From: an uncultured Clostridia bacterium
Lineage (GTDB): Bacteria; Bacillota; Clostridia; Christensenellales; UBA1242
Length of the DNA stretch: 64,000 nt
Direction: 5' to 3'
Assembly (NCBI GenBank): GCA_934747385.1
Contig: CAKVGK010000003.1
Location: 3,679-67,678 of the forward strand
The translations under genes were made by a program, and so were the position numbers. Positions 26,251-55,020 of the stretch are shown here, piece after piece (the first letter of the stretch is position 1; each line of letters starts with the position of its first letter). The notes under the pieces are model-generated. The model did not search any database. It saw only the letters and a program-made list of their open reading frames with translations, and was not told where the DNA came from.

Positions 26251-28067
26251 TAATCCTCCACAACCGGTTTTCTTGCCTTGGCACGAAGTGAATGGTCTAA
26301 AATACGTTTTCTAATACGAACACTTTGTGGTGTTATTTCCACAAGTTCGTCATCTGCAATAAATTCAAGTGCTTCTTCAAGCGTCAATGGTTTGATTGGT
26401 GTAAGTTTAAGAGCGTCGTCGCTGGCACTGCTTCGAGTGTTGGTGAGTTGTTTCTTTTTGCAAACGTTAACAACAATATCTTCACCCTTAGGGTTTGCAC
26501 CAACAACTTGACCCATATAAACTTTGTCGCCAGGGCCAACAAGCAATCTGCCGCGACCTTGAGCGTTGAACAAACCATAAGTGATTGCCTCGCCAGTTTC
26601 GTAACTGATAAGCGAGCCAAAGTTGCGGCCTTCAATATCGCCCTTGTATGGTTGATAACTGTCAAACACAAAACTCATAACGCCTTCACCGCGAGTGTCG
26701 GTGAGCATTTGAGATTTATAACCAAACAAACCACGGCTTGGCACCAAGAATTGCAAACGCATGCGGCTGCCGATTGGTGTCATGCTGATAAGCTCACCTT
26801 TCTTAACGCCCATGCTCATCATTATTGAGCCAACGCTATCTTCTGGCACGTCGATTACAAGTTTATCTATAGGTTCGCATTTAACGCCATCAATGTTTTT
26901 GAACAATACACGTGGACGGCTGACCTGAAATTCATAACCATCACGGCGCATGTTTTCAATAAGAATAGATAGGTGCATTTCGCCTCTGCCGCGCACTTTG
27001 AATTGGTCGGCAGTGTCGCCATCACTAACCTGCAAAGACAAGTCTTTAACAGCCTCTTTGTAAAGTCTGTCTTTCAGGTGGCGGCTTGTGACATATTTGC
27101 CTTCCTTACCTGCAAAAGGACTATCGTTAACCATAAATGTCATTTCAACGCTTGGTTCACTGATTTTAACAAATGGAAGAGCTGCCATATCTGGAGTTTC
27201 GCTGATTGTGTCGCCAATTGTGATGTCTGGAATGCCGGCAATGCACACAATGTCGCCTGCTGTGCCAAGTTCAATAGGATCACGTTTTAAACCATCAAAG
27301 TTAAAGATGTTAACTGCTTTGCCTTGATATTTTTTGTTATCGTCAAAATAGTTTTTAACATAAACAGTTTGGTTAAGTTTGAGTGTGCCAGATTCAATTT
27401 TGCCAACTGCCAGTTTGCCCAAAAAGTCGTTTTGTTCAGTGCTGGAAACAAGCATTTGGAAAGGTGCAGATGTGTCCATTTTTGGTGGGTCAATGTAATT
27501 TACAATTGCTTCAAACAAAGGTTTCATGTCTGTGCCTGGTTTGTGATAGTCGGTTGTTGCAATGCCAGTGCGCGCACTTGCGTAAATGATTGGGCACATA
27601 AGTTGCTCGTCAGTTGCGTTGAGGTCAAGCATAAGTTCAAGCACTTCGTCCGCAACCACGTCCAACCTAGCATCTGGGCGGTCAATTTTGTTGATTACAA
27701 TGATAACCTTCAAATTGAGTTCAAGCGCTTTTTCAAGCACAAAACGTGTTTGAGGCATTGGACCTTCAAAAGCGTCCACAACCAAAAGCACACCATCAAC
27801 CATTTTAAGCACACGTTCAACCTCACCTCCAAAGTCAGCATGACCAGGAGTGTCCACAATATTAATTTTTGTGTTGCCAAAAAAAGCAGAACAGTTTTTG
27901 CTCAAAATTGTGATTCCGCGTTCGCGTTCCAATGCGTTAGAGTCCATAACCCTATCTTGTACTTCTTGATTTTCTCTAAAAATGCCACCTTGTTTCAGCA
28001 AAGCATTAACCAGGCTTGTTTTGCCGTGGTCAACGTGGGCAATGATTGCAATGTTTCTAATATCCAT
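26250..28067 (-). CDS. typA: Translational GTPase TypA/BipA
   Basis: 605-aa ORF: IRNIAIIAHVDHGKTSLVNALL, DTPGHADFGGEVER, NKIDR, and EF-G-like domains. Confidence 0.95.
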   Translation of the reverse strand: MDIRNIAIIAHVDHGKTSLVNALLKQGGIFRENQEVQDRVMDSNALERERGITILSKNCSAFFGNTKINIVDTPGHADFGGEVERVLKMVDGVLLVVDAFEGPMPQTRFVLEKALELNLKVIIVINKIDRPDARLDVVADEVLELMLDLNATDEQLMCPIIYASARTGIATTDYHKPGTDMKPLFEAIVNYIDPPKMDTSAPFQMLVSSTEQNDFLGKLAVGKIESGTLKLNQTVYVKNYFDDNKKYQGKAVNIFNFDGLKRDPIELGTAGDIVCIAGIPDITIGDTISETPDMAALPFVKISEPSVEMTFMVNDSPFAGKEGKYVTSRHLKDRLYKEAVKDLSLQVSDGDTADQFKVRGRGEMHLSILIENMRRDGYEFQVSRPRVLFKNIDGVKCEPIDKLVIDVPEDSVGSIMMSMGVKKGELISMTPIGSRMRLQFLVPSRGLFGYKSQMLTDTRGEGVMSFVFDSYQPYKGDIEGRNFGSLISYETGEAITYGLFNAQGRGRLLVGPGDKVYMGQVVGANPKGEDIVVNVCKKKQLTNTRSSASDDALKLTPIKPLTLEEALEFIADDELVEITPQSVRIRKRILDHSLRAKARKPVVED

Positions 28068-28442
28068 ATAAAAATTTTGTCCTTTTCTTTTAGATTTAAC
28101 GTTTAATATATCAAGCCAGTTTTTCCGGCAATATATGTCAAATTGTTATTATTCTTTTAGATTAATTTATATAATAACACACGCGCGCGTAAAAATCAAT
28201 AATTTGAGCAAATAATTTGCCACAATAAAACAATAGTGACGTCAATAAAAACTGATTAAATTCATTAAACACCTCTAATTATTGCATAATTTACCAAAAA
28301 AATGGCCAAAAACACCTATTTTTAGGGCTTTTGGACGCAAAATATTGCGATTTACGTTTAATTTAGTTGATTTTTGCCAATCAATTTGTTAGTCTAACTA
28401 TAAATAAGGGGGTTGAAGCCCTTTATTAAAAGGAGAAAAATT

Positions 28443-28727
28443 ATGAACACAGTTAGCGCAGGAGAATTTATCAAACAAGTTGCAGAAGCAACAGGTTATT
28501 CACAAGTTCAAGTTAAGGCAATCCTTAATGCCGCTGGTGAACAACTTAAAGCCAACCTTAAGGCTGGCAAAGAATGCCATTTCATTGGTTACATGAACTT
28601 TGGCATTAAACAACGCAAAGCACAAACAAAACTTAACCCATTCACAAAAGAAAAGGTTAAAGTTGCTGCTTGCAAAGTGCCAACCGTTAAGTTGAGCGCA
28701 TCCTTCAAACAATTGTTGAAGAAATAA
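28443..28727 (+). CDS. hup: HU-family nucleoid DNA-binding protein
   Basis: Track ORF starts at TTG 28413. I prefer ATG 28443 behind AAAGGAGAAAAA. 94 aa: MNTVSAGEFIKQVAEATGYSQVQVKAILNAAGEQL...NPFTKEKVKVAACKVPTVKLSASFKQ. Confidence 0.9.
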   Translation: MNTVSAGEFIKQVAEATGYSQVQVKAILNAAGEQLKANLKAGKECHFIGYMNFGIKQRKAQTKLNPFTKEKVKVAACKVPTVKLSASFKQLLKK

Positions 28728-28740
28728 TTTTGAACCAACA

Positions 28741-28769
28741 AAAAACTGCCGCATTCCGGCAGTTTTTTA
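28741..28769. terminator. Bidirectional intrinsic terminator (hup / GLUG gene)
   Basis: AAAAA-CTGCCG-cattc-CGGCAG-TTTTTT. Confidence 0.8.
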
Positions 28770-28801
28770 TTTAATTAATTTATCATTTGTTAAAATAAAA
28801 G

Positions 28802-30256
28802 TTAAAGTTCCGATACTTTTTTTTCTGTAGCCCCAGTCGTGTCTATGTCAGCCTGAGACCAATCCATACACCCAGCACCAGTAACATAACAATTCCTATT
28901 GTAGATAAATTGATTTTTTGGAAAGTCTAAATTATAAACAAGTTTATGACCTGCCCAAACAGCGGCTATTTTTCTGTTATTTTCTTTTTTCGCAAAAGTT
29001 GAGTTGTTGCCAATTTTAATTAAACAGCCCTGTATGTTAACCGTATAACTGTTTCCGCCAGATTCATTTATAAATCCCATCATGCCGCCAAAAGAAACAA
29101 CGTCAGCTGAATCATTGGATTCATTATTAATCACGACATTTCCGTTGAAAAAATTATTTAAAAGAATAACATTTTTAACATAACTACCTACTCCTATAAT
29201 TCCACCAACATTTCCAAAATCCGCATATTTGTCTGGACGAATAGTTATATCACAATTCACATAGCAGTTGCTAACTGAAATATATGCCCAAGAATTATAA
29301 CCTTCACCCTGCTTCTCTTCCCAGTCATAACCAACATAGCCAACAAGTCCTCCCACACTGCAATCTCCAGTATACCAACTCCAAAAAACATCAGATACAA
29401 CATCAATTGATGAGTTTAACACTTGACACTTAGAAATTTCCATATTTCCACAAGCATACCCAACTAGACATCCAACAGCAACAGTCGTTTGCCAGCATGA
29501 CGAGTATTTTTTATCATTTTCATGTGAATATAGTTCAATATTAACATTTTCCAAAGTTAAATTACTAATATTAGCACCATTTAACATTCCAAAGAAACCA
29601 GCACCATTCTTTTCTTCATTTTCTGGGAAAATTACCGAATCATATTGAGATTCATTTTCTCTTTTAATTAAAATATTAGAAACTTTATGCCCTTTTCCGT
29701 CAAAATCACCTTTAAAATATGACTCATTGTCACACCCAATAGGAACCCAAACTTCACCTGAAAGGTTAATATCCTTTGTCAATGAAATGGTTTGCCCCTC
29801 GTATGAGTTACCATTGTTAACATTATTTCTAAAATTTACTAGCCCTGTTTTGTCGCTTATGGTTATTGTTCCGTTTGTGGCAGCATAGGTTGCAACTGAA
29901 ACTTTATTTATGGTTTTGTCCATGGCTGAAAAATAATGTGTTTGATTATTTAATATGTAGTCAAACATAACTTCATTTGAGGTTATTTTAATTAAACCAC
30001 TTAATTCTCCTTTATTGCCGCTGCCGGAGATTTTTATCTTTTGGCTGAGTTTGTCTATTGTGTTGTCTTCTTTTGTTATGCTATCTGTCAATTCAAACTT
30101 AACAACACCTGCTGTGGTTCGCAATATCGCTATGTTGTTTGGTGTTAGGTTGAGGATTAAACCTAGGGTTGTTAGCCCTGCCAATGCAAAACAAAAAATT
30201 AGTAAGAGTATGCTTACTGTTTTTTTGTATCTTAATATCTTATTCGCCCCTAACAT
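28802..30256 (-). CDS. Membrane-anchored surface protein with GLUG-motif repeats
   Basis: 484-aa ORF with an N-terminal TM segment. FKGDFDGKGHKVSNILI is followed by repeated G-rich beta-helix-like units (VGCLVGYACGN, VGGLVGYVGY, VGGIIGVGSY, FGGMMGFINE). Confidence 0.6.
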   Translation of the reverse strand: MLGANKILRYKKTVSILLLIFCFALAGLTTLGLILNLTPNNIAILRTTAGVVKFELTDSITKEDNTIDKLSQKIKISGSGNKGELSGLIKITSNEVMFDYILNNQTHYFSAMDKTINKVSVATYAATNGTITISDKTGLVNFRNNVNNGNSYEGQTISLTKDINLSGEVWVPIGCDNESYFKGDFDGKGHKVSNILIKRENESQYDSVIFPENEEKNGAGFFGMLNGANISNLTLENVNIELYSHENDKKYSSCWQTTVAVGCLVGYACGNMEISKCQVLNSSIDVVSDVFWSWYTGDCSVGGLVGYVGYDWEEKQGEGYNSWAYISVSNCYVNCDITIRPDKYADFGNVGGIIGVGSYVKNVILLNNFFNGNVVINNESNDSADVVSFGGMMGFINESGGNSYTVNIQGCLIKIGNNSTFAKKENNRKIAAVWAGHKLVYNLDFPKNQFIYNRNCYVTGAGCMDWSQADIDTTGATEKKVSEL

Positions 30257-30330
30257 TAATGTTAGTATACCTTAATTTTAAAAAAGTTGTCAAATAATTT
30301 GGATTGATTATTGAACATCAATAAGTGAAA

Positions 30331-30762
30331 CTAATTTTTGCCGGTTGAGCCAATGCCGCCGCGGTCAACAGCGTCCAGATGGTCAACTGTAACAATTTCA
30401 TGTGCTGGTTGGTGAGCAATAATCCTGAATTGGCAAATGCGGTCATTTTTATGAATAACAGTATCGCGCATTGCAAGGGCTGGGAACATCCATTGATCGT
30501 TATCTCCACAATAACTTTCATCTATAATGCCCAGACTGTTGGCTTGAAGAATGCCAAAATTTTTAAAAGTGCTGCTGCGAGGAGCAACCAACGCTTCGTA
30601 GCCAGCTGGCAATTTAATGCCAACGCCAAGTTTGATAAGTTTAAATTCCCCTGCTTTAAGTTCCACTTCTTCAGCGGCGCGCAAGTCATACCAATCGCTT
30701 TTGTTTTCAATGAATTTTATTGGTTCAACGTCTGTGAAATATTTTACTTTAATTTGCAACAT
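30331..30762 (-). CDS. dut: dUTP diphosphatase (trimeric dUTPase)
   Basis: 143-aa ORF: [26 protein letters not shown], and C-terminal [11 protein letters not shown]. Confidence 0.9.
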
Positions 30763-30887
30763 AATCCCTTCCTTTTATTACAAACAATATAACATAAACC
30801 AACAAAAAACACAAATAAATTGCAACATCCAAAAGTTGCTTCTGCAAACATTTAAGTTTAAAGCCCTTGTTATTTTAAAGGCTGGTA

Positions 30888-30915
30888 TTGACAAAAAATG
30901 AATTTTTGATATAAT
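30888..30915 (+). promoter_or_regulatory. Near-consensus sigma-70 promoter: TTGACA, 16-nt spacer containing TGn, then TATAAT
   Basis: TTGACA at 30888-30893 and TGATATAAT at 30907-30915. The first in-frame ATG of the track ORF (30914) lies inside the -10 box; the next in-frame ATG (30923) lies 7 nt after it. Confidence 0.65.
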
Positions 30916-30922
30916 GTTCGCG

Positions 30923-32434
30923 ATGAATAACAGTGAAAGATTTTATTATGAAACAGATTTTGGCATTAAATTGCTATATTGTTTTTTAAAAGCCGACTCA
31001 CAAAACCACAACTACCAAGCAAGAAAAATGATTGAAAACATTGAAGCTTGCAAAATTGACATAGACTCAATGAGGTTTTCTTTTGAAACTTTGGTTGCGC
31101 TTACAAGTTTGGCACTGAATAAAGAAAAGATTGAGCAGCAAGCACATATTGACTGGAACAATTACAAAGCAGAAATGGTTTCTACTTTTGAAAATTTTAG
31201 CAAAAGATATTCAAAAATTCCTTATTTTAAAGAATGGCTTCAAGTTAGTGATTGTGCCACAAAATACGTTAATGAAAATGCCCAATTTTGGATTAAAAAA
31301 GTGCGAAATGCATTCTTGCATGGGCAATTTGAGATAGACTACGACAATTTAAAAAAATATACTGTTAAAATATGCCAAAGCACACCAACAAAAATTGACG
31401 CAAAAATCAACATTTTTGAGCCAGGTTTAACAGAATTCGTTGAGGACAATTTTAGAAACATTTACAATCAAGGTTACGGAATTAAAGATAGTTATAATTT
31501 TATGCGTTACCCTGATTTTGACATAACAAACGAAAAAACATTGGAAGAATATGTGAGCAAAATTTCAATGAATCAATATAAAATTGATTTTGATAAATAC
31601 ACCTATGACGGCATGACTTTAAATTCTGCAGACGGCAAAAAGATAAAGCCAAAAATTGAAACCTCACAAATTGTTGAAGACTCCAATCCAAATGTAAATA
31701 TGCCTGAGTTTTTAGTTGCAAACGGAGGCTCGATGAGTTTAAGTCCAGAAAAAGCCAAACTGCTTGCAAAGTTAATTCACAAAAACGCAGGTTATATTTA
31801 TCATTCCAACAAAAAAAGACTTATTGTTCATAAATATTTTTCAAATTACACATTCACTTATGAAACAATGAATTCTATTTTGCATGAACTTGTTAATGCT
31901 TTCAATTACGTTTACTTCACTTCATTGCCCAACCATAAAAAACAACACAATTTTAATAGAACTTTCCAAATTTTGGATTTTTGCAAAGACAATTTAAAGC
32001 CAACTATGACACTTTTACAACTTTACAGATTGCAATATAGGTTACAATGCAAAAATTTCCCACCTGTTGACTTTTCAAATTTGAATTGCGAAAGATTATT
32101 TGGCTCAACCACTCCTGAATTAATTGACGCGAGAATTGAAAAGATTATGAAAAACAATCCAGACTTGACAAAAAAACAGGCCACCAACAAAGCATATTTG
32201 GAAATTTTGCGCGATTCACTTGCTCATGGCAATGTTGAATATCAAAGATTGGTTTCAGATGATTTGGACATAATTGAAGGCAGATTCACCTTTACAGATT
32301 CTTGGACGGACAAAGCTGGCAACCACACAGAAACAAAAATCATATCAAATGTTGGTTCGTTGGAATATTTGTTTACTGAAATTGACAAGGATCTTGACTT
32401 TTTGCCATACAAAGATATGGAAGATGAAATTTAA
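30923..32434 (+). CDS. Orphan cytoplasmic protein with two R-x4-H (HEPN-type) motifs; candidate tandem-HEPN RNase
   Basis: Track ORF is 30914..32434 (506 aa). Motif 1 is KKVRNAFLHGQFE (R131/H136, nt 31304-31321). Motif 2 is EILRDSLAHGNVE (R433/H438, nt 32210-32227). The surrounding sequences are mutually similar ([VL]R[ND][AS][FL][LA]HG[QN].E). No signal peptide or TM segment. The start is probably ATG 30923, given the promoter position. That the ORF is coding is highly likely; the HEPN call rests on motifs only. Confidence 0.6.
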   Translation: MNNSERFYYETDFGIKLLYCFLKADSQNHNYQARKMIENIEACKIDIDSMRFSFETLVALTSLALNKEKIEQQAHIDWNNYKAEMVSTFENFSKRYSKIPYFKEWLQVSDCATKYVNENAQFWIKKVRNAFLHGQFEIDYDNLKKYTVKICQSTPTKIDAKINIFEPGLTEFVEDNFRNIYNQGYGIKDSYNFMRYPDFDITNEKTLEEYVSKISMNQYKIDFDKYTYDGMTLNSADGKKIKPKIETSQIVEDSNPNVNMPEFLVANGGSMSLSPEKAKLLAKLIHKNAGYIYHSNKKRLIVHKYFSNYTFTYETMNSILHELVNAFNYVYFTSLPNHKKQHNFNRTFQILDFCKDNLKPTMTLLQLYRLQYRLQCKNFPPVDFSNLNCERLFGSTTPELIDARIEKIMKNNPDLTKKQATNKAYLEILRDSLAHGNVEYQRLVSDDLDIIEGRFTFTDSWTDKAGNHTETKIISNVGSLEYLFTEIDKDLDFLPYKDMEDEI

Positions 32435-32524
32435 CGTTTTTTTATAAATATTTTATTTTTAATAAAGCAATCAACAAAAAATTGTTACTTAACATGCTTT
32501 ATTTCAATAACAAATGAAGACACT

Positions 32525-32554
32525 AAAAAAAGACTAGTTGAACTAGTCTTTTTT
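32525..32554. terminator. Bidirectional intrinsic terminator between the HEPN-motif gene and rplA
   Basis: AAAAAA-AGACTAG-ttgaa-CTAGTCT-TTTTT. Confidence 0.8.
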
Positions 32555-32568
32555 GTTAACATGTTAAA

Positions 32569-33255
32569 TTATTTAACGTCGTAACTTAATTTAACGCTTG
32601 GGCCCATTGTTGTTGCAACATAAACTGATTTTAAGTAAACACCTTTTGCTGCAGCTGGTTTTGCTTTAATAATAGCGTCCATAACTGTTGTTAAGTTGTT
32701 GAACAATTTTTCAGCACCAAAGCTTACTTTACCAATACGAACGTGAACAATGTTTTGTTTGTCAAGACGATATTCAACCTTACCGGCTTTAACGTCGTTA
32801 ATAGCTTTAGTAACGTCCATAGTAACAGTGCCGCTCTTTGGGTTTGGCATTAAGCCTTTAGGTCCAAGAATACGAGCACAACGACCGATTGCACCCATCA
32901 TGTCTGGTGTGGTGATGCAGACATCGAAGTCCAACCAACCGCCCATGATTTTAGCAATAACGTCATCGTCGCCAACGATATCAGCGCCAGCTTTGCGAGC
33001 TTCTTCTGCCTTATCGCCACGAGTGATAACCAAAACGCGAACAGTTTTACCTGTACCTTCTGGCAAAACGCAAACGCCACGAACTTGTTGGTCTGCGTTA
33101 CGGCCATCAACGCCAAGTTTAACGTGAAGTTCAACAGTTTCGTCAAATTTTGCTTTGCTTGTTGAAACAACAACGTCCATAGCTTCTCTTGGAGCGTATG
33201 CCTTTGATTTGTCTATGAGTTTAAGAGCTTCTTGATAATTCTTACTTGTTGCCAT
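32569..33255 (-). CDS. rplA: 50S ribosomal protein L1
   Basis: 228-aa ORF: ...[24 protein letters not shown]...[16 protein letters not shown]. Confidence 0.97.
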
Positions 33256-33682
33256 TCCAGCCCTCCACTACTACGCCCATGCTGCGGCAAGAACCTGCAA
33301 TCATGCTCATTGCTGCTTCAATGCTTGCTGCATTAAGGTCGCTCATTTTTGTTTCTGCGATTTTCTTAAGTTGTTCGACTGTGATTTTACCAACTTTGTT
33401 TTTAGGGGCTTTATCGCTACCCTTTTCAATGCCAGCTTCCTTCAAAATAAGGTCAGCTGCTGGTGGTTGTTTAAGCACGAATGTGAAACTTCTATCTTCG
33501 TAGATAGTGATTACACATGGAACTGTAAAGCCAACCATTGATTGTGTTTTGTCGTTAAATTCTTTAACGAAACCTGCAATGTTAATGCCATGAGGACCAA
33601 GCACTGAACCAACTGGTGGTGCTGGAGTAGCTTTTGTTGCAGGAAGTTGAATGTTAACAACTGCTTTAACTTTTTTTGCCAT
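33242..33682 (-). CDS. rplK: 50S ribosomal protein L11
   Basis: 146-aa ORF: [26 protein letters not shown]-type N-terminus (here [28 protein letters not shown]). It overlaps the rplA start by 14 nt. Confidence 0.97.
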
Positions 33683-33782
33683 CTCTATTTTCTCCTTTTT
33701 TAATATGTGGCGTGGTTAATGAGGCCGACCACCTCTCCCACGAAAGTTTCCCTCTCTTTAAGGCGGATGAGTTTCCTATAAA
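33683..33782 (-). promoter_or_regulatory. GC-enriched structured leader of the rplK-rplA operon; candidate L1-binding autoregulatory element
   Basis: Minus-strand RNA ...CGUGGGAGAGGUGGUCGGCCUCAUUAACCACG... forms nested CGUGG/CCACG and GAGG/CCUC stems. The region is far more GC-rich than other intergenic DNA here. Confidence 0.35.
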
Positions 33783-34343
33783 TTAATTGTTGCTTACTCT
33801 AACTTGACCGAAAGACAACTCAACGTCACTTTCACGGCCAAACATTTCAACGCTAGCGGTCAATTTTTGATTTTCTTTGTCCACAGCCTTAACAACGCCA
33901 ACAAAGTTTGCAAGTGAGCCTTCAAGAATTTCAATCATATCGCCAACTTTAACGTCCAAATCCATTTTTGCTTCGTGCATATTTGCACCGTCAACACCCA
34001 TGCGCCTTGCTTCTTCGTCTGTGATTGGAATTGGTCTGCCCTTTGGTCCAACGAAACCAGTAATATACTGAGTTCTTGTAACAGCGTGCCAAATGTCGTC
34101 GCCATATTTCATTCTAACCAACATATAGCCTGGCATAGTCTTTTTAGGAACAAGCACTTTTTTGCCACGTTTTTCAACAAGTTCGTCTTCCATAGGAATG
34201 ATTATTTGGAAAATGCGGTCTTGCAAGTCATACTTTTCAACAGTAATTTCCAAATTTTGTTTAGCAACATTTTCGTAACCAGAAAACACGTGAAGCACGT
34301 ACCATTTAGGTTCAATATCTTTGTTATTATCTACAATTGCCAT
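33783..34343 (-). CDS. nusG: Transcription termination/antitermination factor NusG
   Basis: 186-aa ORF: WYVLHVFSGYENVAKQNLE (NGN domain) and a C-terminal KOW (VGDMIEILEGSLANFVGVV). Confidence 0.95.
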   Translation of the reverse strand: MAIVDNNKDIEPKWYVLHVFSGYENVAKQNLEITVEKYDLQDRIFQIIIPMEDELVEKRGKKVLVPKKTMPGYMLVRMKYGDDIWHAVTRTQYITGFVGPKGRPIPITDEEARRMGVDGANMHEAKMDLDVKVGDMIEILEGSLANFVGVVKAVDKENQKLTASVEMFGRESDVELSFGQVRVSNN

Positions 34344-34357
34344 AACTTAAACTCCTC

Positions 34358-34651
34358 CTAGAACAAAAGCCCAACCAGCCAAGAGCAAAGTTTGTCAAGC
34401 CCGAACAAAACAAGTGTGAACACAATAACAACAACCAAAACCACGCCTGTTTGCTTAACAACGTCTTTAAATTTTGGCCAACTGACTTTTTTAAGTTCAG
34501 CACCAGTATCTTTCAAAGATTTTGCCAATTTGTTAGGCTTTTTGACCTTGTCTTTTTTAGGTTTTGCGTTTTTTGCCTTAACTTCCACAACCTTGCCGTT
34601 AGATTTGTTTTCTATTTCCTTTGTTTCAACCAGTTTTTTATCTTCAACCAT
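34358..34651 (-). CDS. secE: Preprotein translocase subunit SecE (with Lys-rich N-terminal extension)
   Basis: 97-aa ORF with an AGGAGA SD. It contains ELKKVSWPKFKDVVKQTGVVLVVVIVFTLVLFGLD and sits between rpmG and nusG. Confidence 0.85.
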   Translation of the reverse strand: MVEDKKLVETKEIENKSNGKVVEVKAKNAKPKKDKVKKPNKLAKSLKDTGAELKKVSWPKFKDVVKQTGVVLVVVIVFTLVLFGLDKLCSWLVGLLF

Positions 34652-34659
34652 AATCTCTC

Positions 34660-34830
34660 CTATTTTGTTTCTTTATGAGTGGTTTCTTTTTTGCAATTTG
34701 GGCAGAATTTTTTAAGTTCTAATCTGTCTGGGTCGTTTGCTTTGTTTTTGGTAGTGTTGTAGTTACGATTTTTGCATTCTGTGCACTCCAAAATTATTTT
34801 TTCTCTTTTGCTTTTTGCTTTCTTTGCCAT
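34660..34830 (-). CDS. rpmG: 50S ribosomal protein L33
   Basis: Found by eye (56 aa, below the track cutoff): [66 protein letters not shown] and CxxC...CxxC zinc ribbon. Confidence 0.9.
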
Positions 34831-35232
34831 ATTGTTCTCCTTTTTTTAATTTAATACCCATTAACTGGTATAATTCCACATTAAATTTGGTGTTGTTTTA
34901 ACCTATTCAAAAATTAAAACTGAAATTTTTAACAAAAGTTTGTTTATATTTTTGTGTTCAAGACCTAAAACAATTATTTCTCAACTGTTTTAAGTAAAAC
35001 TTAAACGCCAAAAATGCATTCGTTAAAAAAACACCTGCTTGGTGTAATCATATATTAACACAATCACACAACCTTGTCAACACAAAAATGAAACTTTTTT
35101 TTAAAATTTAAACCTTTTTAGAAGAAAAATGTTTTCCAAAACGCATATACAATTGACACTATAAATCAGTGCCATAACAACATAGCGCATTCAAAACAAA
35201 AAAACCACCAAGAAAATGGTGGCTGTTTTTAA

Positions 35233-35802
35233 TTATTCTTCTTCAATTTCTGTGTTTTGAGTTGCTGCTGGTTCTTCAATCTCAATTGTCTGTTCTTCCA
35301 AATCTTCATCTAAGGTTTCAAGCTCATTCTTTTTTGGTTTATCAGCCAAACTTCCGTTTGAAAGTTCTTTTGGTTGACGTTCTTTCTTTTGAACCTTTTT
35401 GTTGCCCAACATAACTTCAACAAAACCAACTTTTGTGCCATTGATTTCGCAAACAAGGCGGAAAATTGCATAAGCCAAAAACAAGAAGGCCAAAGCAGCA
35501 ATAACGTTTTGATAAGTATGCATACCTTTGTAAAGGTCATAAGTTGGAATGCCAAATTCAAGTGCAAAATAAATCACACTTTCAAGCACCAAGAAAGCAA
35601 TTGTAATAACAAATAAATCCATCATTCTTTTTTTGGTTTCCTTATCTGTTAAAACAACAATCATTAGTAAGGCTGTTATTGCAAAATAAGCAACAAAGTT
35701 AATGCCAACCCCACTGAAGAAGTTAAGCAGAGTGTTCCATGCCAAACTTATGGCACAAGCAACAAAAACCAAAACGAAAGATAATTTTAAATTTTTAGAC
35801 AT
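35233..35802 (-). CDS. Multi-pass membrane protein with acidic C-terminal tail, unknown function
   Basis: 189-aa ORF with 4 hydrophobic segments and the tail ...ELETLDEDLEEQTIEIEEPAATQNTEIEEE. Confidence 0.55.
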   Translation of the reverse strand: MSKNLKLSFVLVFVACAISLAWNTLLNFFSGVGINFVAYFAITALLMIVVLTDKETKKRMMDLFVITIAFLVLESVIYFALEFGIPTYDLYKGMHTYQNVIAALAFLFLAYAIFRLVCEINGTKVGFVEVMLGNKKVQKKERQPKELSNGSLADKPKKNELETLDEDLEEQTIEIEEPAATQNTEIEEE

Positions 35803-35989
35803 AATTTAACCTCTTTATTTCATTATAAGTCATTTTTCAATATTTGGCAAACAAAAAATCAAATGTTTCAAGTTTAATGTAATAATTTTGTCAGTTTAAA
35901 GGGATTTTAAATCAAAATTTTCAAAAAATGGCAGGTTTTTGCAAAAAATACCAAGTTTGGTGATATTTTGCTTAAAAAAAGAGGTTTAT

Positions 35990-36157
35990 ATGGAAGAAGA
36001 TTTGCAATTAGCTTTAAAAAAAATTGCCGACCTTGAAAGAAAAATTGAAAAATATTTTGAAATCTTGCAAGTAACAAACGAGTTGGATTTTATTTTGAAA
36101 GGTGGCTATTATTTAACCGCAGAGTTAGACAAAATCATTTCAGGCGAATACGAATAA
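35990..36157 (+). CDS. Small coiled-coil protein (55 aa), hypothetical
   Basis: I prefer ATG 35990 (GAGG SD) within track ORF 35939..36157: MEEDLQLALKKIADLERKIEKYFEILQ... It ends 15 nt before the next gene. Confidence 0.4.
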   Translation: MEEDLQLALKKIADLERKIEKYFEILQVTNELDFILKGGYYLTAELDKIISGEYE

Positions 36158-45198: not shown

Positions 45199-48100
45199 CT
45201 AAATCTTATCGTTTACGCTGTAACGTTCTTTTTTGCGTTTGCGGACGATTATAAACACTATAATAATTATCAACAAAAGCAAAATTCCAAGCGAAATGAT
45301 GAGAATAAGTTGCCATTGTTTTAAAAGCACTCTCTGTTGAATAAGAACAAAAGTTAAAGGCTGATAATTTGTTTGACTTAAATCAACAATCAACTGATCG
45401 CCTTGCTGAGAGTAGTCAAGTTCAACCGAATTGTTGCCTGTTAACATTAAAACATTTGTTAACCTTTCTGCATTTGGAAGAACCAAAGTCAAGTTATTGT
45501 CCAGATAAGTGTTGATATTGTTGTTTTCAAACATAATTCTGTAGCCAACAACAAAATTTCTGTTTCTGTTCAAATATCTTGAAATGTTTGAGTACAATTC
45601 CACATATTCAGGGCTGTCAGCATAAACCAAATCGACCTTCAATTTGGCATCAATTGGAATTAAACCTGCCAATTCGTGCCTTGTTGTTTCCGCTGCGCCA
45701 ATCAAGCCTTTGTTGTTTCGCACTTCAATTGTGCCAAAGTCTTTAATTCGTTTGCTAACACTATATGGGTAAATGTTTGCGGTTGTGCCGTTGACCTTTA
45801 TTTTGTAGTTGCTTGCGTCCTCACCTTTTAACGCTTTGGTTGCGTCTATGTTGACGTTGATATTGTAACCAATTGGCACTTTTCCGTCAATACCTTTTGC
45901 AAAAGTTAAAACCAAATCTTCAATATTAGGCGCATAAATTTCGTCGCCTGAAATGATATTGTTCCATTGTAGAGTTGTTTCAATGCTGTATTCTGCCTTG
46001 TCTGTGCCGTCATAAACCTTGTCATAAACCTTAACGCCAGACAAAATGATTTCACGTTTGTTAACCTTCATTGCGTTTTCAAACAACAAACTTGAATTGA
46101 TTAAACTGAAGTTTGTGTTGCCAAAACCAATGTTTGTGAGCAAAATGTTCAAATACTTGCCGTCCTCAGTTGCCATGCCTGAATTTACTTGAGCGTCACC
46201 ATTCGTGTAAGTTGTGGTTGCTTTTAACACGCTCAAATTCAAACTCATGTTTTCGTTTGTTGGTGAGTAACTGTAAGTTCTGCTGCCATCTGTGAAATAA
46301 ACATATTTAAGTAAATCGGCAATGTTTGTGAAAATAAAATTGTTTTTGCCAACATATTCCTTTTCGTAAGGTTGTTTGCGGTTAAATGTTTCGTTATTAA
46401 CCTTAAGTTCCAAATCCTTAGGGCTAATCACAACGAACAAATCTTTATCATAACTCAATGAAGAAAGCCAAGACCAATTGCCAGAGCCATCAAAGGTTAA
46501 TTTAACTTTGTATGTGCCTGCGTCAATCAATTTGGACTCTTCATTTTCAAAACCTATTGTAACATTGTTTTTAATGATATTTTTGTGATATGAAATGTTG
46601 ACATAATCTTTCAAAATATCTGCAATTTGAATGTGGAAAGTTGAATTTTGACCAATTGTCAAACTTTGTTCCAAGCCGTTGCCAAGTTGGTCGCACTGGA
46701 AGGTGAAATTAAACTTATTGTCCTGAGTGTTAATTGTTAACACTGGTTGAACTTGAAGTTCCACATATAAATCTTCAATAAATCGGTAATCAAAGCTTTT
46801 GCTCTCAAGTGAAATGCTTGAAATGCCATATTTTTCAAAATCCTCAATCGAAATTGTTTGAATTAAATCTCCTTTCACATTTGCCAAGTTGACCCTTGAA
46901 TAATTTGAGGCTGGTTTTAACGCATACAATTTTAGTCCTGTTATGATGAAATAGTTATTGTAATCGCGATAATTATTTATAAAGCCATAAGAAATATATT
47001 CTTTACCCAAGAAATGCAATTCGTTGAACAATCTGTCTGAGCCACGGCTGCTGACTGCACCTGAGCCAAATCCGTATTTGCGTTCATAAGACATACTGAA
47101 TATAACGCTGTTGCTTGAACTGTCTTTGTAAAAACCTGTGTTTGTGCTGTTTTCTGGCACATTGGTTGTTAAAACAAGTTTTTTGGTTTTAATTTGATAG
47201 TAGATGAAAATGTTGAAACTATCGTCCATGGACAAGCAGTTGTTGTTCAACATGTCCGAAATATAAAATTCCAAAACATATTTGCCATTTCCGCGATCAG
47301 CAATGACCAAACTTCCGTTTGTGTTGTCGTAAACAAAAGCAGAGATAAGTTCAATGCCATTTGCCAAACTGAATTGGATATTAGAAATGTCTATGGTTTT
47401 TAAGTTGATTTTTATTCTCAATTTATAATTTTCAATTGTAACTGTTGAAGAGCTATCTAAGCTTGATTCGTTGCCAATTGAATCAATAATGCTGAATTCA
47501 ATGTTTGCGTAATCATCTGGTGTGAGCAACAAATCACCTTTGTTGAGGTCGGTTGAGCCTATGTTTGCGGCTTTCACACTATAAGAGATTTCAATATAAT
47601 CATATTTCACATGGAAAATGATTGAGTAAACATTGTTTTCGTCCAACTCTGCATAATATTTGCTGATTTGGAATTCAGGGTCTTTGAAAACCGTGTTGGA
47701 ATAGGTATAATATTTAACGTTTGCATTATAAACTTTGCTGTTGTTGCGCTTAAATTCGCCAGCAGCCAAAACAAATAGAGTTTTCCAATCAGTGTTCCAA
47801 TATGTTTCGCTGTAAGTATAAGGTTCAAATGCTGAGAAGAAATCCACTCTTGTGGTGACTTTTTGATAATATTCTCTGCCTTCTTGATATTCCTCTGTGT
47901 TCAAAATGTATTGGTTGTCCACATAAACATACAGGGTTGATTTAACTTGCTCAAATTCTTCTGGTGTGCATGGGTACGTCACAAATTCGCTTTTATAATA
48001 ATACATGCTTGTAAAGCGCCAACCATTTTGTCTATCTGCGTTTGTGTCAATTGTAAGTTCATCAAAACGTGAAATTTTGTTTGTTATTTCTTTAGTGTAA

Positions 48101-51100
48101 GCATTTTTGATTGTTACAATTGGGCTTTTTGTGTTGCCATGAGTTTCAATGCGGATTGAATATGAATTGTAATTCAACTTGTATTCAACAATTTGATTTG
48201 CTGTGAGTTTATTAATAAACAAAGTTGTTAAATTTGAACTGAATCCTGCTTGTGGGTCGTAAATCCAACCATATGGCGACATGCCTTGTTGATTGATTTC
48301 GTCTGCAATAATTTGAATTTGTGCCCCATAAGGAATGTTGAAGAACATTCTTGATTTGTTATTAACCTGAGAGTTGACTGGCTGACCATTTAATAGCATT
48401 GTTACATTTGGGAAACTAACTTCATTATCATATTCACCCTTGCTTGTTGCCAAACTATAGTTGACTGTGATTGTGTAAGTGTGTTGAGTGTAAACAATGA
48501 ACATATTAAGGGTGATAACATTGTCAACCTTAATGCCATAACTATCAATCAAATCGCTAAGTTCAGTTGAAGTGAAATCGTATTTATAAATATTAGAAGA
48601 ATAATTGTTTGTATTTGCTGCATTGCTAAACTTGCCCATTCCAAGTTGGTTTTTGAAATAAACTTCACCTGCATAATAGCCCTCTGGCATTTCAAATTGA
48701 ACATTAAGTTTTTCCATTGAAATGTCAAAACTGCCCAGTGCTGTTGGTTCGTCCTCAACTGAATAAGCATAACTAACATTGAGTTTGTAATTTATTAAGT
48801 TTGTTAAAATTTCCAAAGTGTGCACAAACGTTGAGTTTGAAGTTGTGAAATCAAACACATATTGGTTGGTTAAATCCTTTGCCAAATATTCAACCTCGTT
48901 GAACTTGTAGCCTTTCAATTCATAGCCTGAAGCAAAAGATGCAGCCAAATATAATTTATATGCTCTTGATGGAATTAATTCCTTTGTTGTGAAGTCGATT
49001 TTTGTGTTGTCAACTGTGTCCAACACATATGTTTTGCCAAGGTCGATTGATTGCTGCAAGTCATATGCTGCTGCATTGTCAACTGAAACATTGAGCCACA
49101 AACCTGGCATGGAATAGATTACAAAAATTTCAATGTCTTTTTTAACCTGATAACTTGTTGCCTTTGAATTCGGGTCTTCCACCGCCACCAAACTGAAGTT
49201 TGATTGGAAGTTTTCTGTGAAGCGGTTGAACAAATAATAAGTTGGAGTTTCACTTGAACTGTCGATGCATTTTGCGGTTGAAATGAGTTTAAGATATTCG
49301 AACATTTTCAAATTTTCAACAACGAGTTTTGCTTCTTCGCCGCCAAATTCATAATATTTAATGCTGTCTGTTTGATTGGCTTTGTTGTAAATTGTGCCAT
49401 TGTATTCAACACTTAAGTCAGCCATTAAAATTTTAATGTTTTCGCTGTTGAAAGCACCTTTGAGCGTGAAAGTTACTGTGTAAGTTTGATAGTCCTCAAA
49501 ATCAAATATGTCGATTATATTAGTGTTGGCATTGTCGTACGTTGACAAAAATTCTTGTGTTATGGTTATGCTAAAAGTGTTGCCATCGTAAATTTTGGTT
49601 GCTGCATCAAACCCGAAACCTAAAAATTTAAAGCCTTGGTTTGCTGTGGCAACAAAAGTTAAAACATCTCCAATTTTAACAGTTTTTTCAAATTCCAAAT
49701 TTGCGTTTGCATTGTTCAAATTTAACAAAGTTGAACTGGTTAGGTTGCCGTCACGGTCAACGTCCATTGCAAGGCTTGCAACTGGGTAGATATTCTTTGT
49801 GCCGTCGTTTAAATTTATGTGATTTATGTTTTTAAACGAAACTGTGTAATATTTTTCTTCAAACAACATTAAAACTGTTTTGTTTGTGGGTTTTGTTTTG
49901 TGAATGGAAATTGTTGTTGTGACTGCTGGTGCAGTTCCCAGATTGAGCATCATATTTTTGGTGTTTTCCTCTGTCACAAAGCCAACGAAATTGTACCCCA
50001 CATTATTTGAAATGTCTGTTTTTGTTATTGTTTCGCTGGTTGTGCCGCGCTCCAACATTAAACTTTCTTCAACGTTGAAGTTGCCGTCAAGTTCTCTAAA
50101 TTTTCTTGCAGTTGCGTCGTACAAAACAAATTTAAAGTTGACTGTGTAAAGCACTGGTGTGTAGTTAACAACGACTTCAAAATTTTGGTCAATTGCTTGA
50201 CTTAAATTCAAATTGTTTTGATTAATGCTTTCGCTAACAGGTGCATAAGTTGAGCTTAAACTTTCAAAAGTGTAATAATCGTAACCACTATTTGCAATTT
50301 TTTCATTAGCTGTAAGTTTAAAGCCAACCACATTTTGTGCGGTGCTTGCGTCTTTAACAAAATATTTTTTGTTTTGTTCGATAACTGAATAATAACTGCT
50401 TACATTAACATTCAAAGCGTTAAAAATGAAATCTTGGTTCTCGCCCGCTGGTTGGTTGTTGATTGTTGGAACGATTGAAGCAATGTAAAGTTTGTCATAT
50501 TCAACTGCAATTGCTGCCAATTGAGTTTTGCTTTCTTGCATTTTGAAAGCAACCTGAATGGTTTTGGTTCGGTTAAATTCGTCTTTTGTTAAAGCAAAAC
50601 TTGCTTCACCAGTTTGAGTTAATTCAATGGTTTTTTCATCAATATTAATTTTAACACCAGTAACATCCACATTGGTGCTTGAAGTTAAACCTTCCAAATC
50701 GATTGCAACATTTGTTGTGAAATTAACCTGTTCGTTAAACCTAAATCTGCCGCGGGAAAGTTCAATTTTTTGCGTCAAACTTGCCTCGCTGCCATTTGGT
50801 TGATAATAATTAAGAGTGTAATATGTGTTGGTTCCGTCGTCGCAATAAACTTCGCCAAAATAATAATATTTTTCATTTGTCTTCAAAAATGAATTGGAAT
50901 ATTTGGTTGTGCCATTTTCATTAATGCTTTCACCAAAAAACAAATCCTGCCCTTCGCCAATGTTTACAGATTGCCATTTGGTGCTATCGCCTAAATTGTC
51001 CAGTTTCAGCAATTGTGTTGCGTCAACATTGCTATAAATGAAGTCAAACACTGGGTCAATTGTCACGTTTTCAACCACTTGGTCGAATGTGAGAAGAGAA

Positions 51101-51561
51101 TAGTCAAAATAACCATCTCCGTTTTTGTCTTGATATGTTAAGGTGTATTTAACTGAAAATGATTGTTCAAATTCAGCTGCTTGATATGTAATTTCAAAAT
51201 CGGTTGAACTATAAATTTGTTCACCGTTTTCAATTGTTTGCTCGCCAAGTTTTCTTGTTGTGGAATATTGTTTTGAAACGTCATCTGTAAAAACCACTCT
51301 CCAGCCCACAATTTGAAAACCTTGATTAGCGGTTGCTTTGATTGGTTCAACATTCTTTTCGCCAAGCAGATATTCGTCGTAACCAGTTGAAACACCGGCG
51401 TCAACGTCTGCCTCGTAAGGCAAATTATTGTTAATCAAAAATGTTGCTGTTTTTGTTTTTTCAACATTGGCAGCATAGGTCACTTTTTGAGGCAGCGAAA
51501 CAACAAGTGCCAAAACTGCCACAACCAAACCAAATATTAACCCAAATGCTTTTCTTTTCAT
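45199..51561 (-). CDS. Giant (about 2120 aa) surface protein: signal peptide, many beta-rich repeats, C-terminal MBG-type domain and TM anchor
   Basis: The track ORF starts at TTG 51564. I prefer ATG 51561 (GAGGA SD), which overlaps the trxB stop as TGATG. Signal peptide is MKRKAFGLIFGLVVAVLALVVSLPQKVTYA. Near the C-terminus, VYDKVYDGTDKAEY...ASNYKIKVNGTTANIYP is MBG-like, followed by LILIISLGILLLLIIIIVFIIV-RKRKKE. Confidence 0.8.
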   Translation of the reverse strand: MKRKAFGLIFGLVVAVLALVVSLPQKVTYAANVEKTKTATFLINNNLPYEADVDAGVSTGYDEYLLGEKNVEPIKATANQGFQIVGWRVVFTDDVSKQYSTTRKLGEQTIENGEQIYSSTDFEITYQAAEFEQSFSVKYTLTYQDKNGDGYFDYSLLTFDQVVENVTIDPVFDFIYSNVDATQLLKLDNLGDSTKWQSVNIGEGQDLFFGESINENGTTKYSNSFLKTNEKYYYFGEVYCDDGTNTYYTLNYYQPNGSEASLTQKIELSRGRFRFNEQVNFTTNVAIDLEGLTSSTNVDVTGVKINIDEKTIELTQTGEASFALTKDEFNRTKTIQVAFKMQESKTQLAAIAVEYDKLYIASIVPTINNQPAGENQDFIFNALNVNVSSYYSVIEQNKKYFVKDASTAQNVVGFKLTANEKIANSGYDYYTFESLSSTYAPVSESINQNNLNLSQAIDQNFEVVVNYTPVLYTVNFKFVLYDATARKFRELDGNFNVEESLMLERGTTSETITKTDISNNVGYNFVGFVTEENTKNMMLNLGTAPAVTTTISIHKTKPTNKTVLMLFEEKYYTVSFKNINHINLNDGTKNIYPVASLAMDVDRDGNLTSSTLLNLNNANANLEFEKTVKIGDVLTFVATANQGFKFLGFGFDAATKIYDGNTFSITITQEFLSTYDNANTNIIDIFDFEDYQTYTVTFTLKGAFNSENIKILMADLSVEYNGTIYNKANQTDSIKYYEFGGEEAKLVVENLKMFEYLKLISTAKCIDSSSETPTYYLFNRFTENFQSNFSLVAVEDPNSKATSYQVKKDIEIFVIYSMPGLWLNVSVDNAAAYDLQQSIDLGKTYVLDTVDNTKIDFTTKELIPSRAYKLYLAASFASGYELKGYKFNEVEYLAKDLTNQYVFDFTTSNSTFVHTLEILTNLINYKLNVSYAYSVEDEPTALGSFDISMEKLNVQFEMPEGYYAGEVYFKNQLGMGKFSNAANTNNYSSNIYKYDFTSTELSDLIDSYGIKVDNVITLNMFIVYTQHTYTITVNYSLATSKGEYDNEVSFPNVTMLLNGQPVNSQVNNKSRMFFNIPYGAQIQIIADEINQQGMSPYGWIYDPQAGFSSNLTTLFINKLTANQIVEYKLNYNSYSIRIETHGNTKSPIVTIKNAYTKEITNKISRFDELTIDTNADRQNGWRFTSMYYYKSEFVTYPCTPEEFEQVKSTLYVYVDNQYILNTEEYQEGREYYQKVTTRVDFFSAFEPYTYSETYWNTDWKTLFVLAAGEFKRNNSKVYNANVKYYTYSNTVFKDPEFQISKYYAELDENNVYSIIFHVKYDYIEISYSVKAANIGSTDLNKGDLLLTPDDYANIEFSIIDSIGNESSLDSSSTVTIENYKLRIKINLKTIDISNIQFSLANGIELISAFVYDNTNGSLVIADRGNGKYVLEFYISDMLNNNCLSMDDSFNIFIYYQIKTKKLVLTTNVPENSTNTGFYKDSSSNSVIFSMSYERKYGFGSGAVSSRGSDRLFNELHFLGKEYISYGFINNYRDYNNYFIITGLKLYALKPASNYSRVNLANVKGDLIQTISIEDFEKYGISSISLESKSFDYRFIEDLYVELQVQPVLTINTQDNKFNFTFQCDQLGNGLEQSLTIGQNSTFHIQIADILKDYVNISYHKNIIKNNVTIGFENEESKLIDAGTYKVKLTFDGSGNWSWLSSLSYDKDLFVVISPKDLELKVNNETFNRKQPYEKEYVGKNNFIFTNIADLLKYVYFTDGSRTYSYSPTNENMSLNLSVLKATTTYTNGDAQVNSGMATEDGKYLNILLTNIGFGNTNFSLINSSLLFENAMKVNKREIILSGVKVYDKVYDGTDKAEYSIETTLQWNNIISGDEIYAPNIEDLVLTFAKGIDGKVPIGYNINVNIDATKALKGEDASNYKIKVNGTTANIYPYSVSKRIKDFGTIEVRNNKGLIGAAETTRHELAGLIPIDAKLKVDLVYADSPEYVELYSNISRYLNRNRNFVVGYRIMFENNNINTYLDNNLTLVLPNAERLTNVLMLTGNNSVELDYSQQGDQLIVDLSQTNYQPLTFVLIQQRVLLKQWQLILIISLGILLLLIIIIVFIIVRKRKKERYSVNDKI

Positions 51562-54824: not shown

Positions 54825-55020
54825 AAGCTAAATAAAAATAATAATTTTTTAACTTTAAATACAATTTATCGAATTACGCTAGTTTTGAGATAAATTATAA
54901 TTAAAGTTTGTAACATAAGCTAAATAAAATTATATATTTTAAACTTTAAATTTACAATTTATCACATTACGTTAGTTTTGAGATAAATTATATTTTTAAA
55001 GTTTGTAACATAAGCTAAAA
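54810..55020. repeat. Tandem repeat, period 92-95 bp: two full units plus a partial third; each contains a copy of the recN start (ATGTTACAAACTTTAA)
   Basis: TAAAGTTTGTAACATAAGCTAAA occurs at 54810, 54902 and 54997. The units also share AACTTTAAAT, AATTTATC...TTAGTTTTGAGATAAATTATA and an 8-bp inverted repeat AATTTATC/GATAAATT. Confidence 0.9.

Follow-up and report, generated by a model that had tools for sequence, protein, structure and literature searches.

A 64,000-nucleotide (nt) stretch of DNA from an uncultured Clostridia bacterium of the Christensenellales (GenBank contig CAKVGK010000003.1, positions 3,679 to 67,678; hereafter the window) carries, at 30923..32434 on the forward strand, a gene for a tandem HEPN-like protein of 503 amino acids (aa). 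The family to which this protein belongs is real and conserved and has not been described before, having neither a model in Pfam, NCBIfam, PADLOC or PHROGs nor any literature, and it is best regarded as a new architectural variant of a known superfamily. Membership in the HEPN superfamily is probable, and the explanation we favor, at a probability of about one in two, is an undescribed stand-alone, single-gene ribonuclease (RNase) built from two HEPN units of the p136 type (Pfam PF18736, HEPN pEK499_p136) and acting as an auto-inhibited effector of immunity or conflict, a reading in which we infer that the protein cleaves RNA, that its active site is intramolecular, that a trigger exists and that it serves in defence from the features described below.

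A preliminary description of the locus had reported a 506-codon open reading frame (ORF), which the six-frame listing places at 30914..32434 (+), adjoining dut (30331-30762, -) and convergent with rplA (32569-33255, -). The frame is real and its surroundings are as described, but its start has to be moved: the N-terminus of every homologue is MNNSERFYY, corresponding to M4 of the ORF (nt 30923), so that the real product has 503 aa, and the first ATG (30914) lies inside the -10 box of the promoter. A database protein (P0001) is identical to this 503-aa sequence. Residue numbers used here follow the 506-codon ORF. In agreement with the earlier account, no signal peptide or transmembrane segment is predicted (maximum Kyte-Doolittle value over 19 residues, KD19, 1.04).

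The ORF contains exactly two R-x4-H sites, KKVRNAFLHGQFE (R131/H136; motif 1, R-N-A-F-L-H, 31304..31321, +) and EILRDSLAHGNVE (R433/H438; motif 2, R-D-S-L-A-H, 32210..32227, +). At least two plain RxxxxH sites arise in 4.3% of composition-preserving shuffles, while the extended form R[NDH]xxxHG occurs at least twice in 0 of 20,000, and among the 56 window ORFs of at least 100 aa this is the sole one with two extended sites. In a 14-sequence alignment reaching down to 18% identity, R131, H136, R433 and H438 are invariant, forming together with L436 and G439 six of the 16 invariant columns, and the residue following each motif R is N or D throughout. Both sites agree with the definition of the HEPN motif as a conserved Rx4-6H with a polar residue (N/D/H) after the R (PMC3710099). 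The same paper places the motif R at the end of a helix and the H at the start of the next loop, an arrangement reproduced in the predicted structure of the full chain (AlphaFold2, AF2; mean predicted local distance difference test, pLDDT, 81.6; predicted template modelling score, pTM, 0.85; C-terminal unit pLDDT ~90), where R131 stands at the C-terminal end of helix 123-135 and R433 at the end of helix 420-437, with H136 and H438 coming right after. Each motif is followed in the model by three strands and then a helix; a beta-hairpin directly after the HEPN motif has been described in Csx1 (PMC3710099).

Around each motif lies a putative p136-like HEPN unit. The N-terminal unit (~residues 50-185; 31061..31468, +), supported by hhalign comparison with PF18736, sub-threshold Pfam matches and the AF2 model, comprises an invariant LNKEK element (N69, E71), the helix with R131, beta strands and a conserved helix, GLTEFVEDNF, whereas the C-terminal unit (~residues 345-497; 31946..32404, +), supported by hhalign and AF2, has a conserved LLQLYRLQYRLQ helix, the helix with R433, a three-stranded beta meander and the helix LEYLFTEID. 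The two units match each other in hhalign at P 5e-6 to 7e-5 over 18-55 columns, against P ≥0.04 for middle-region controls, which supports the internal duplication that had been proposed from the resemblance of the motifs. Between them lies a beta-rich hypervariable region (residues 186-275; 31469..31738, +), recognized by a drop in identity and by AF2 strands, which is a candidate sensor or recognition domain and shows no profile similarity to the N unit, the C unit or PF18736 in hhalign. Among eight close orthologues, mean pairwise identity is 0.48 in this region versus 0.72-0.92 in the catalytic cores, the highest values (0.84-0.93) being reached in the motif segments and closing helices and the lowest (0.27-0.57) in residues 201-280 and three loops.

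The HEPN clade PF18736 turns up sporadically within restriction-modification (R-M), Pgl and ART/Macro operons and is linked to conflict systems (PMC3710099). Its archetype, WP_000528932.1 of about 166 aa, comes from the Escherichia coli plasmid pEK499 (NC_013122; L019:41727-42227, with L numbers denoting loci; Pfam E 1e-49). The lone p136 sequence proved underpowered against the profile of our family (P 0.018) and was replaced; 120 PF18736 members were collected, and a 53-sequence profile was used in hhalign. Against this profile the C unit matched at P 3.9e-5 to 9.4e-5 (probability 59-70%), or at P 2.6e-3 over 104 columns with a narrower alignment, and the N unit at P 4.7e-4 to 2.8e-3 (probability 11-33%, over 60-104 columns), compared with P 0.08 for the middle control region. 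The scores of both units were reached by 0 of 60 column shuffles per unit and by no reversed alignment, and both units align to PF18736 in register at the motif and beyond, the invariant LNKEK of the N unit falling on LPKEr of PF18736. The shared features are a helix that terminates in R-N-S-x-A-H, the beta strands and closing helix that come after it, and a conserved L-x-K-E element upstream. By hmmscan, PF18736 was matched in 4 of the 10 close family members, always on residues 94-170, the region of the first motif, and faint or weak precomputed matches exist in the distant members P0020, P0022 and P0016; the window protein itself has none by hmmscan. These sequence comparisons indicate a probable relative of the p136 clade and not a member of PF18736. 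Members of PF18736 are single-domain proteins of ~160 aa, mostly proteobacterial and often plasmid-borne or located in R-M/Pgl operons, whereas ours, of 503 aa, is a tandem duplication that has additional helices and a variable middle domain of ~90 residues, is encoded on the chromosome of gut Clostridia, and belongs to a family scoring ≤17 bits against a gathering threshold of 26.6 (best match 17.1 bits, E 0.0046).

Several results weigh against a HEPN assignment. In addition to the PF18736 scores staying below the gathering threshold, none of the hhalign probabilities against PF18736 (11-70%) exceeds 90%, and in PADLOC-DB v2.0 (2023) 0 families matched at E up to 10. Foldseek brought up neither a HEPN structure nor any other significant match, either with the full model against PDB and BFVD or with a less confident model of the C-terminal domain only (pLDDT 69) against PDB, its top non-significant matches being helix-plus-sheet, sensor-like folds. 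PF18736, moreover, has no solved relative by PDB profile search, so that its own HEPN status is computational. Single-sequence scans of the protein against Pfam, NCBIfam, PADLOC, PHROGs and PDB sequences likewise gave nothing significant. The tandem-HEPN proposal of the preliminary description is partly sustained, by the invariant motifs, the related halves and a weak but reproducible relation to PF18736 above shuffle nulls; a canonical HEPN fold is confirmed neither by Foldseek nor by the sub-threshold hidden Markov model matches.

The same results could be read as a non-HEPN fold, in which the helix(R..H)-beta3-helix element would be some other alpha/beta domain, for example an RNA- or ligand-binding one, the R and H would serve binding or a different chemistry, and the likeness to PF18736 would be local motif convergence. 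All HEPN profile matches being sub-threshold and HEPN structures being missing from the Foldseek results for both the full chain and the C-terminal domain are in line with such a fold, as are the identities of the best non-significant structural matches (PAS/Cache-like, COMMD and Alba-type alpha+beta folds) and those of the PDB profile searches, in which the whole family, the C-terminal domain and PF18736 produced only chance-level matches to ribosomal S18 and HPF, the best for PF18736 and the family being alpha/beta ribosome-associated proteins at E 0.08-0.6. However, the alternative fold matches are all non-significant (E > 0.01, TM-score < 0.25), and 3Di searches discriminate helical bundles poorly. 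The PF18736 matches also run on for 44-104 columns past the motif and take in a second conserved element (LNKEK versus LPKEr), and the helix-end motif with a polar residue after R fits HEPN, with the post-motif beta-hairpin having its precedent in Csx1. We consider a non-HEPN fold unlikely on balance, the strongest of the competing explanations though it is.

Two HEPN-like units in one polypeptide is the layout of Cas13, and a Cas13-ancestor-like protein had been among the earlier suggestions. Cas13an proteins are ancestral compact type VI effectors of 429-577 aa that adjoin CRISPR arrays, whose HEPN domains group with AbiD/F and for which an origin by fusion of two defence-type HEPN genes has been proposed (PMC12165695). 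An RNA-guided nuclease of this kind, with its guide encoded elsewhere, would be in keeping with the size of the protein and with the two R-x4-H HEPN motifs on its one chain, and the RNxxAHG motif resembles HEPN2 of Cas13an. Yet hhalign comparison with nine Cas13an sequences (Table S3 of PMC12165695; first 400 aa of each) aligned no more than ~24 columns, those at the motif itself (P 1e-3 to 4e-2, probability 1-21%), equal to what PF18736 shares with Cas13an; the likeness being confined to the motif, the resemblance is one of design and not of family, and the units relate instead to the p136 clade. No Cas13 chain appeared in PDB sequence or fold searches. Tandem-repeat and repeat-family scans detected no CRISPR-like array or repeat family in the 64 kb, as had been stated before, and the homologue loci that were inspected had none either. 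In 28000-36000 a permissive Rfam scan gave neither RF03085 nor anything else credible, and no flanking non-coding RNA (ncRNA) or other non-coding sequence was conserved at the orthologous loci. The Cas13-ancestor-like candidate was rejected on this basis, and any Cas13-like, RNA-guided function is highly improbable; a sub-variant programmed by a trans-encoded RNA found no support and ranks just as low. An AbiF-like RNA partner was also tried and rejected (no RF03085, no conserved flanking RNA, no repeats). Abi2, AbiD and AbiF, single-protein Abi effectors of Firmicutes, resemble our protein in their R-N-x-x-A-H type motif but have one HEPN domain, PF07751 and RF03085, whereas ours has two units and shows neither a match to PF07751 at E up to 10 nor RF03085 nor a conserved RNA upstream.

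The gene is not the orphan it was taken for. Ten homologues with 39-100% identity were found in a 5.8-billion-protein set, where a profile search based on the wider alignment added none to these ten (a limit of the word index), and an exhaustive HMMER scan of 1.84 billion representatives yielded 15 clusters including full-length relatives at 18-33% identity. There are thus 10 close and about 12 distant homologues, and the family is rare, at 15 clusters among the 1.84 billion. Among the related genomes are those of uncultured Clostridia from Hadza gut samples and of "Christensenella sp. UBA4626". The locus order is BipA-HU-(orf484)-(dut)-X-rplA-rplK-nusG-secE-rpmG in L001, L005-L008 and L011, where X is the HEPN-like gene, and a rearranged variant of this rplA-type locus occurs in L002 and L009. 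In a second clade the gene lies at a truA-mreB locus, overlapping the truA stop codon as TAATG and followed by mreB-minD, while further clades have it between corA and NUDIX, between Nramp and GNAT, or adjoining GtrA. No neighbour is conserved across clades, and no partner gene was seen in about 12 contexts. The sole defence-type neighbour in any context seen is an Abi_2 (PF07751) HEPN gene in L015 (L015:4852-5802), ~2 kb upstream of the tandem-HEPN gene and separated from it by a trypsin-PDZ protease gene and corA.

Sampling of loci through the neighbour BipA, and not through the HEPN-like gene, brought up a close relative (L020) with the order NusG-RplK-RplA-Dut-orf484-HU-BipA (BipA 97%, RplA 94% and HU 95% identity) and no HEPN-like gene at the locus, ~220 unrelated nt occupying its place between an inverted dut and the rplA terminator. 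In this genus the gene thus belongs to the accessory part of the chromosome and occupies a fluid spot between HU/dut on one side and rplA on the other. The preliminary description had seen an accessory insertion in a core locus, at the position where rplJL should be; the empty site and fast evolution favor the first part, whereas synteny in at least five genomes and an unremarkable composition do not, and the second part was overstated, as rplJ and rplL are absent from the window but the break after rplA is common to the whole genus, including the genome without the gene. Recent horizontal acquisition as judged by composition was rejected, the gene's GC content of 0.316 lying inside the window range of 0.29-0.43.

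Rates of evolution set the gene apart from its surroundings. Among congeners, flanking proteins are 86-98% identical versus 55-64% for the HEPN-like protein; its rate of nonsynonymous substitution (dN) is 0.27-0.33 versus mostly 0.01-0.1 for the neighbours, or about tenfold, and the ratio of dN to the synonymous rate (dS) is 0.16-0.23 versus 0.02-0.14. The dS of the gene is 1.2 compared with 0.2-1.3 for neighbours, that of dut being equally high, a pattern that points neither way on the import of alleles. In the truA-mreB clade, TruA, MreB and MinD are 80-93% identical versus 39-40% for the HEPN-like protein. Fast evolution, its recurrence in a second clade and the empty site point to an accessory, conflict-related gene and not a housekeeping one, and the defence or conflict effector put forward earlier fits both the accessory status and the rapid divergence. 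Another gene of the same interval, orf484 (28802-30256, -; 484 aa, with an N-terminal hydrophobic segment), located between HU and dut, is hypervariable as well: where core proteins of two genomes agree at ~95%, its own identity is 34-47%, and that over part of the length. L005 lacks orf484 and L020 has it, and its L001 homologue has no Pfam match. Because orf484 is hypervariable, dut is inverted and the HEPN-like gene comes on top, the HU-rplA interval appears from sequence comparison to mark a local variability hotspot in an otherwise rigid neighbourhood of translation genes.

Other features of these loci speak against a conflict role. At least five related genomes have the gene in a syntenic position, which is stable within each clade, its neighbours are all housekeeping genes with no recognizable defence island, and tblastn against 50,697 phage and 72,556 plasmid records found 0 homologues. 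The absence in L020 applies to the locus only, a copy elsewhere in that genome being possible, and overall dN/dS is below 1, so that positive selection is not demonstrated. Such features would suit a lineage-specific, vertically inherited housekeeping nuclease for RNA processing (tRNA or rRNA maturation or turnover) situated beside translation genes, for which the stable synteny with rplA/rplK/nusG in one clade, the TAATG translational coupling to truA in another, a strong constitutive promoter and the lack of an antitoxin or mobile-element link under overall purifying selection can all be cited, essential HEPN processing enzymes such as Las1 being known (bioRxiv 10.1101/760058). This alternative is nevertheless rather improbable: dN is about ten times that of the flanking housekeeping genes in two independent clades, the gene is missing at the locus in a close relative, 78 outgroup BipA loci have no copy nearby, the family is extremely sparse among the 1.84 billion representatives, and the genomic location differs between clades. 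The coupling to truA, a tRNA pseudouridine synthase gene, occurs in 3 of 3 sampled genomes (L014:7276-9563, L016:3-1921 and L100:1-1706) and could be a hint of a tRNA substrate or mere use of the truA promoter. Since the locus lacks the gene in a close relative and the gene evolves about tenfold faster than its neighbours, a stand-alone anti-phage or conflict RNase, and neither a Cas13 relative nor a housekeeping enzyme, is most likely.

An accessory, fast-evolving gene might also encode the toxin of a toxin-antitoxin (TA) or addiction module, the unrecognized antitoxin being a small overlapping ORF, an antisense or 3' untranslated region (UTR) RNA, or a trans-encoded protein. HEPN RNases are often TA toxins, as in HepT-MNT or in AbiF with its RNA antitoxin. 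The 3' UTR of the gene (32435-32526; L001:9519-9652; and its L011 equivalent), of ~90 nt, is ~90% identical among the three closest genomes, while the coding sequence above it has 64% protein identity and a dS of ~1.2 in the same genomes. The conservation of this 3' UTR, however, does not reach to the more distant orthologous loci, and its folding shows no significant structure (z -1.1); upstream, DNA is conserved at promoter elements only; and no adjacent ORF is conserved in about 12 contexts. The truA-coupled clade leaves no room for an upstream RNA, and neither repeats of the type III antitoxin type nor an Rfam match were detected. An MNT nucleotidyltransferase gene, whose absence from the window had already been remarked on, occurs in no context, the neighbours being dut, rplA, HU, truA, mreB, corA, NUDIX, GNAT and GtrA. 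A TA toxin thus seems improbable, more so than a housekeeping nuclease.

Expression signals around the gene are well defined, and both the dedicated promoter and the bidirectional terminator described earlier were recovered. The sigma-70 promoter (30888..30915, +) consists of -35 TTGACA (30888-30893), a 16-nt spacer and -10 TATAAT (30910-30915), a 12/12 match to the consensus with an extended TG at 30907-30908. From the -10 box to the second ATG the sequence reads TATAAT-gttcgcg-ATG, so the M4 ATG sits 7 nt past the box, without a Shine-Dalgarno sequence. This gap is kept at 6-7 nt in L001, L002-4, L005, L010 and L012, and over six orthologous loci only TTGAC, TGnTAnAAT and the ATG spacing are conserved upstream. 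Given the 7-nt gap and the missing Shine-Dalgarno sequence, the mRNA is probably leaderless. Starts of this type, in which 6-7 nt separate the end of the -35/-10 pair from the ATG and a Shine-Dalgarno sequence is missing, are found at 4 of 51 window ORFs, the others being at 9968, 42746 and 52454, and the HEPN-like gene has the sole perfect 12/12 promoter among the four. This pattern suggests that leaderless mRNAs may be fairly common in this Christensenellales-like organism, and leaderless translation as a gene-specific form of regulation was rejected in view of the same layout at 4/51 ORFs. At the other end, an A-run, 13-bp stem and U-run (32526..32554, no strand) fold on both strands, with minimum free energies of -13.6 and -13.1 kcal/mol (z -4.6 and -4.1), which supports a bidirectional intrinsic terminator common to the convergent rplA; an equivalent A-run/hairpin/T-run is found in all orthologous loci. 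A 16-nt motif, AA[CT]CAACAAAAAA[CT][TA][GC], recurs at 28733-28748, 30797-30812 and 32469-32484, each time a short way downstream of a gene (HU, dut and the HEPN-like gene, which are consecutive), and may belong to a 3'-end or terminator-proximal element that these genes share.

Elsewhere in the window, a 93-nt tandem repeat (2.3 copies, 88% identity) occupies AT-rich intergenic DNA at 54804-55019, between ORFs of 560 aa (53142-54824, -) and 330 aa (55087-56079, -). A 2120-aa ORF (45199-51561, -) with an N-terminal hydrophobic segment probably encodes a surface or adhesin-type protein, and an ORF of >8000 aa lies near the copy of the HEPN-like locus in L002.

Under the favored explanation, two diverged p136-type units, in each of which helices that terminate in R-[ND]-x3-H-G are joined by a beta insert to a closing helix, would flank the hypervariable beta-rich domain, and the two R-x4-H sites would meet within one polypeptide in a composite metal-independent RNase centre of the sort that other HEPN proteins build by dimerizing and Cas13 from its two HEPN domains. 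The enzyme would be made constitutively from its strong promoter and held inactive until a phage- or stress-derived cue switched it on by way of the fast-evolving middle domain and surface loops. Once activated, it would cleave cellular or invader RNA, such as mRNA, rRNA or tRNA anticodon loops, the last being the commonest HEPN target, and RNA cleavage would lead to growth arrest or abortive infection.

DARNA/PD-T7-3, a stand-alone, auto-inhibited HEPN immune RNase that cleaves tRNA, and ApeA are likely functional analogues, both being single-gene systems that are constitutively made, auto-inhibited, activated by a phage cue and directed at tRNA (bioRxiv 10.64898/2026.02.22.705581). They have one HEPN domain per chain and form the active site by dimerizing or oligomerizing, whereas our protein has two per chain, and the PADLOC models, including those of the PD-T7 and ApeA families, do not match it. 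A bolder version, possible but held only tentatively, is that single-chain double-HEPN effectors in the style of Cas13 arose a second time and independently, in that a duplicated unit of the pEK499_p136 type, and not of the AbiD/F type, would have given rise to a one-gene antiviral sensor-nuclease whose intramolecular active site would be gated by the hypervariable middle domain.

The family probably serves defence or conflict. If the favored explanation is correct, the poorly studied Christensenellales-like Clostridia of the gut would possess an unannotated family of compact, monomeric two-HEPN RNases, and one more single-gene immune effector would be added to those catalogued. The family would also offer a small 503-aa scaffold in which a pre-assembled HEPN pair is combined with a separable, fast-evolving sensor domain. 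As a natural duplication of HEPN into one chain outside CRISPR, it would bear on the rise of Cas13-type architectures and may represent a parallel route to the single-chain double-HEPN effector.

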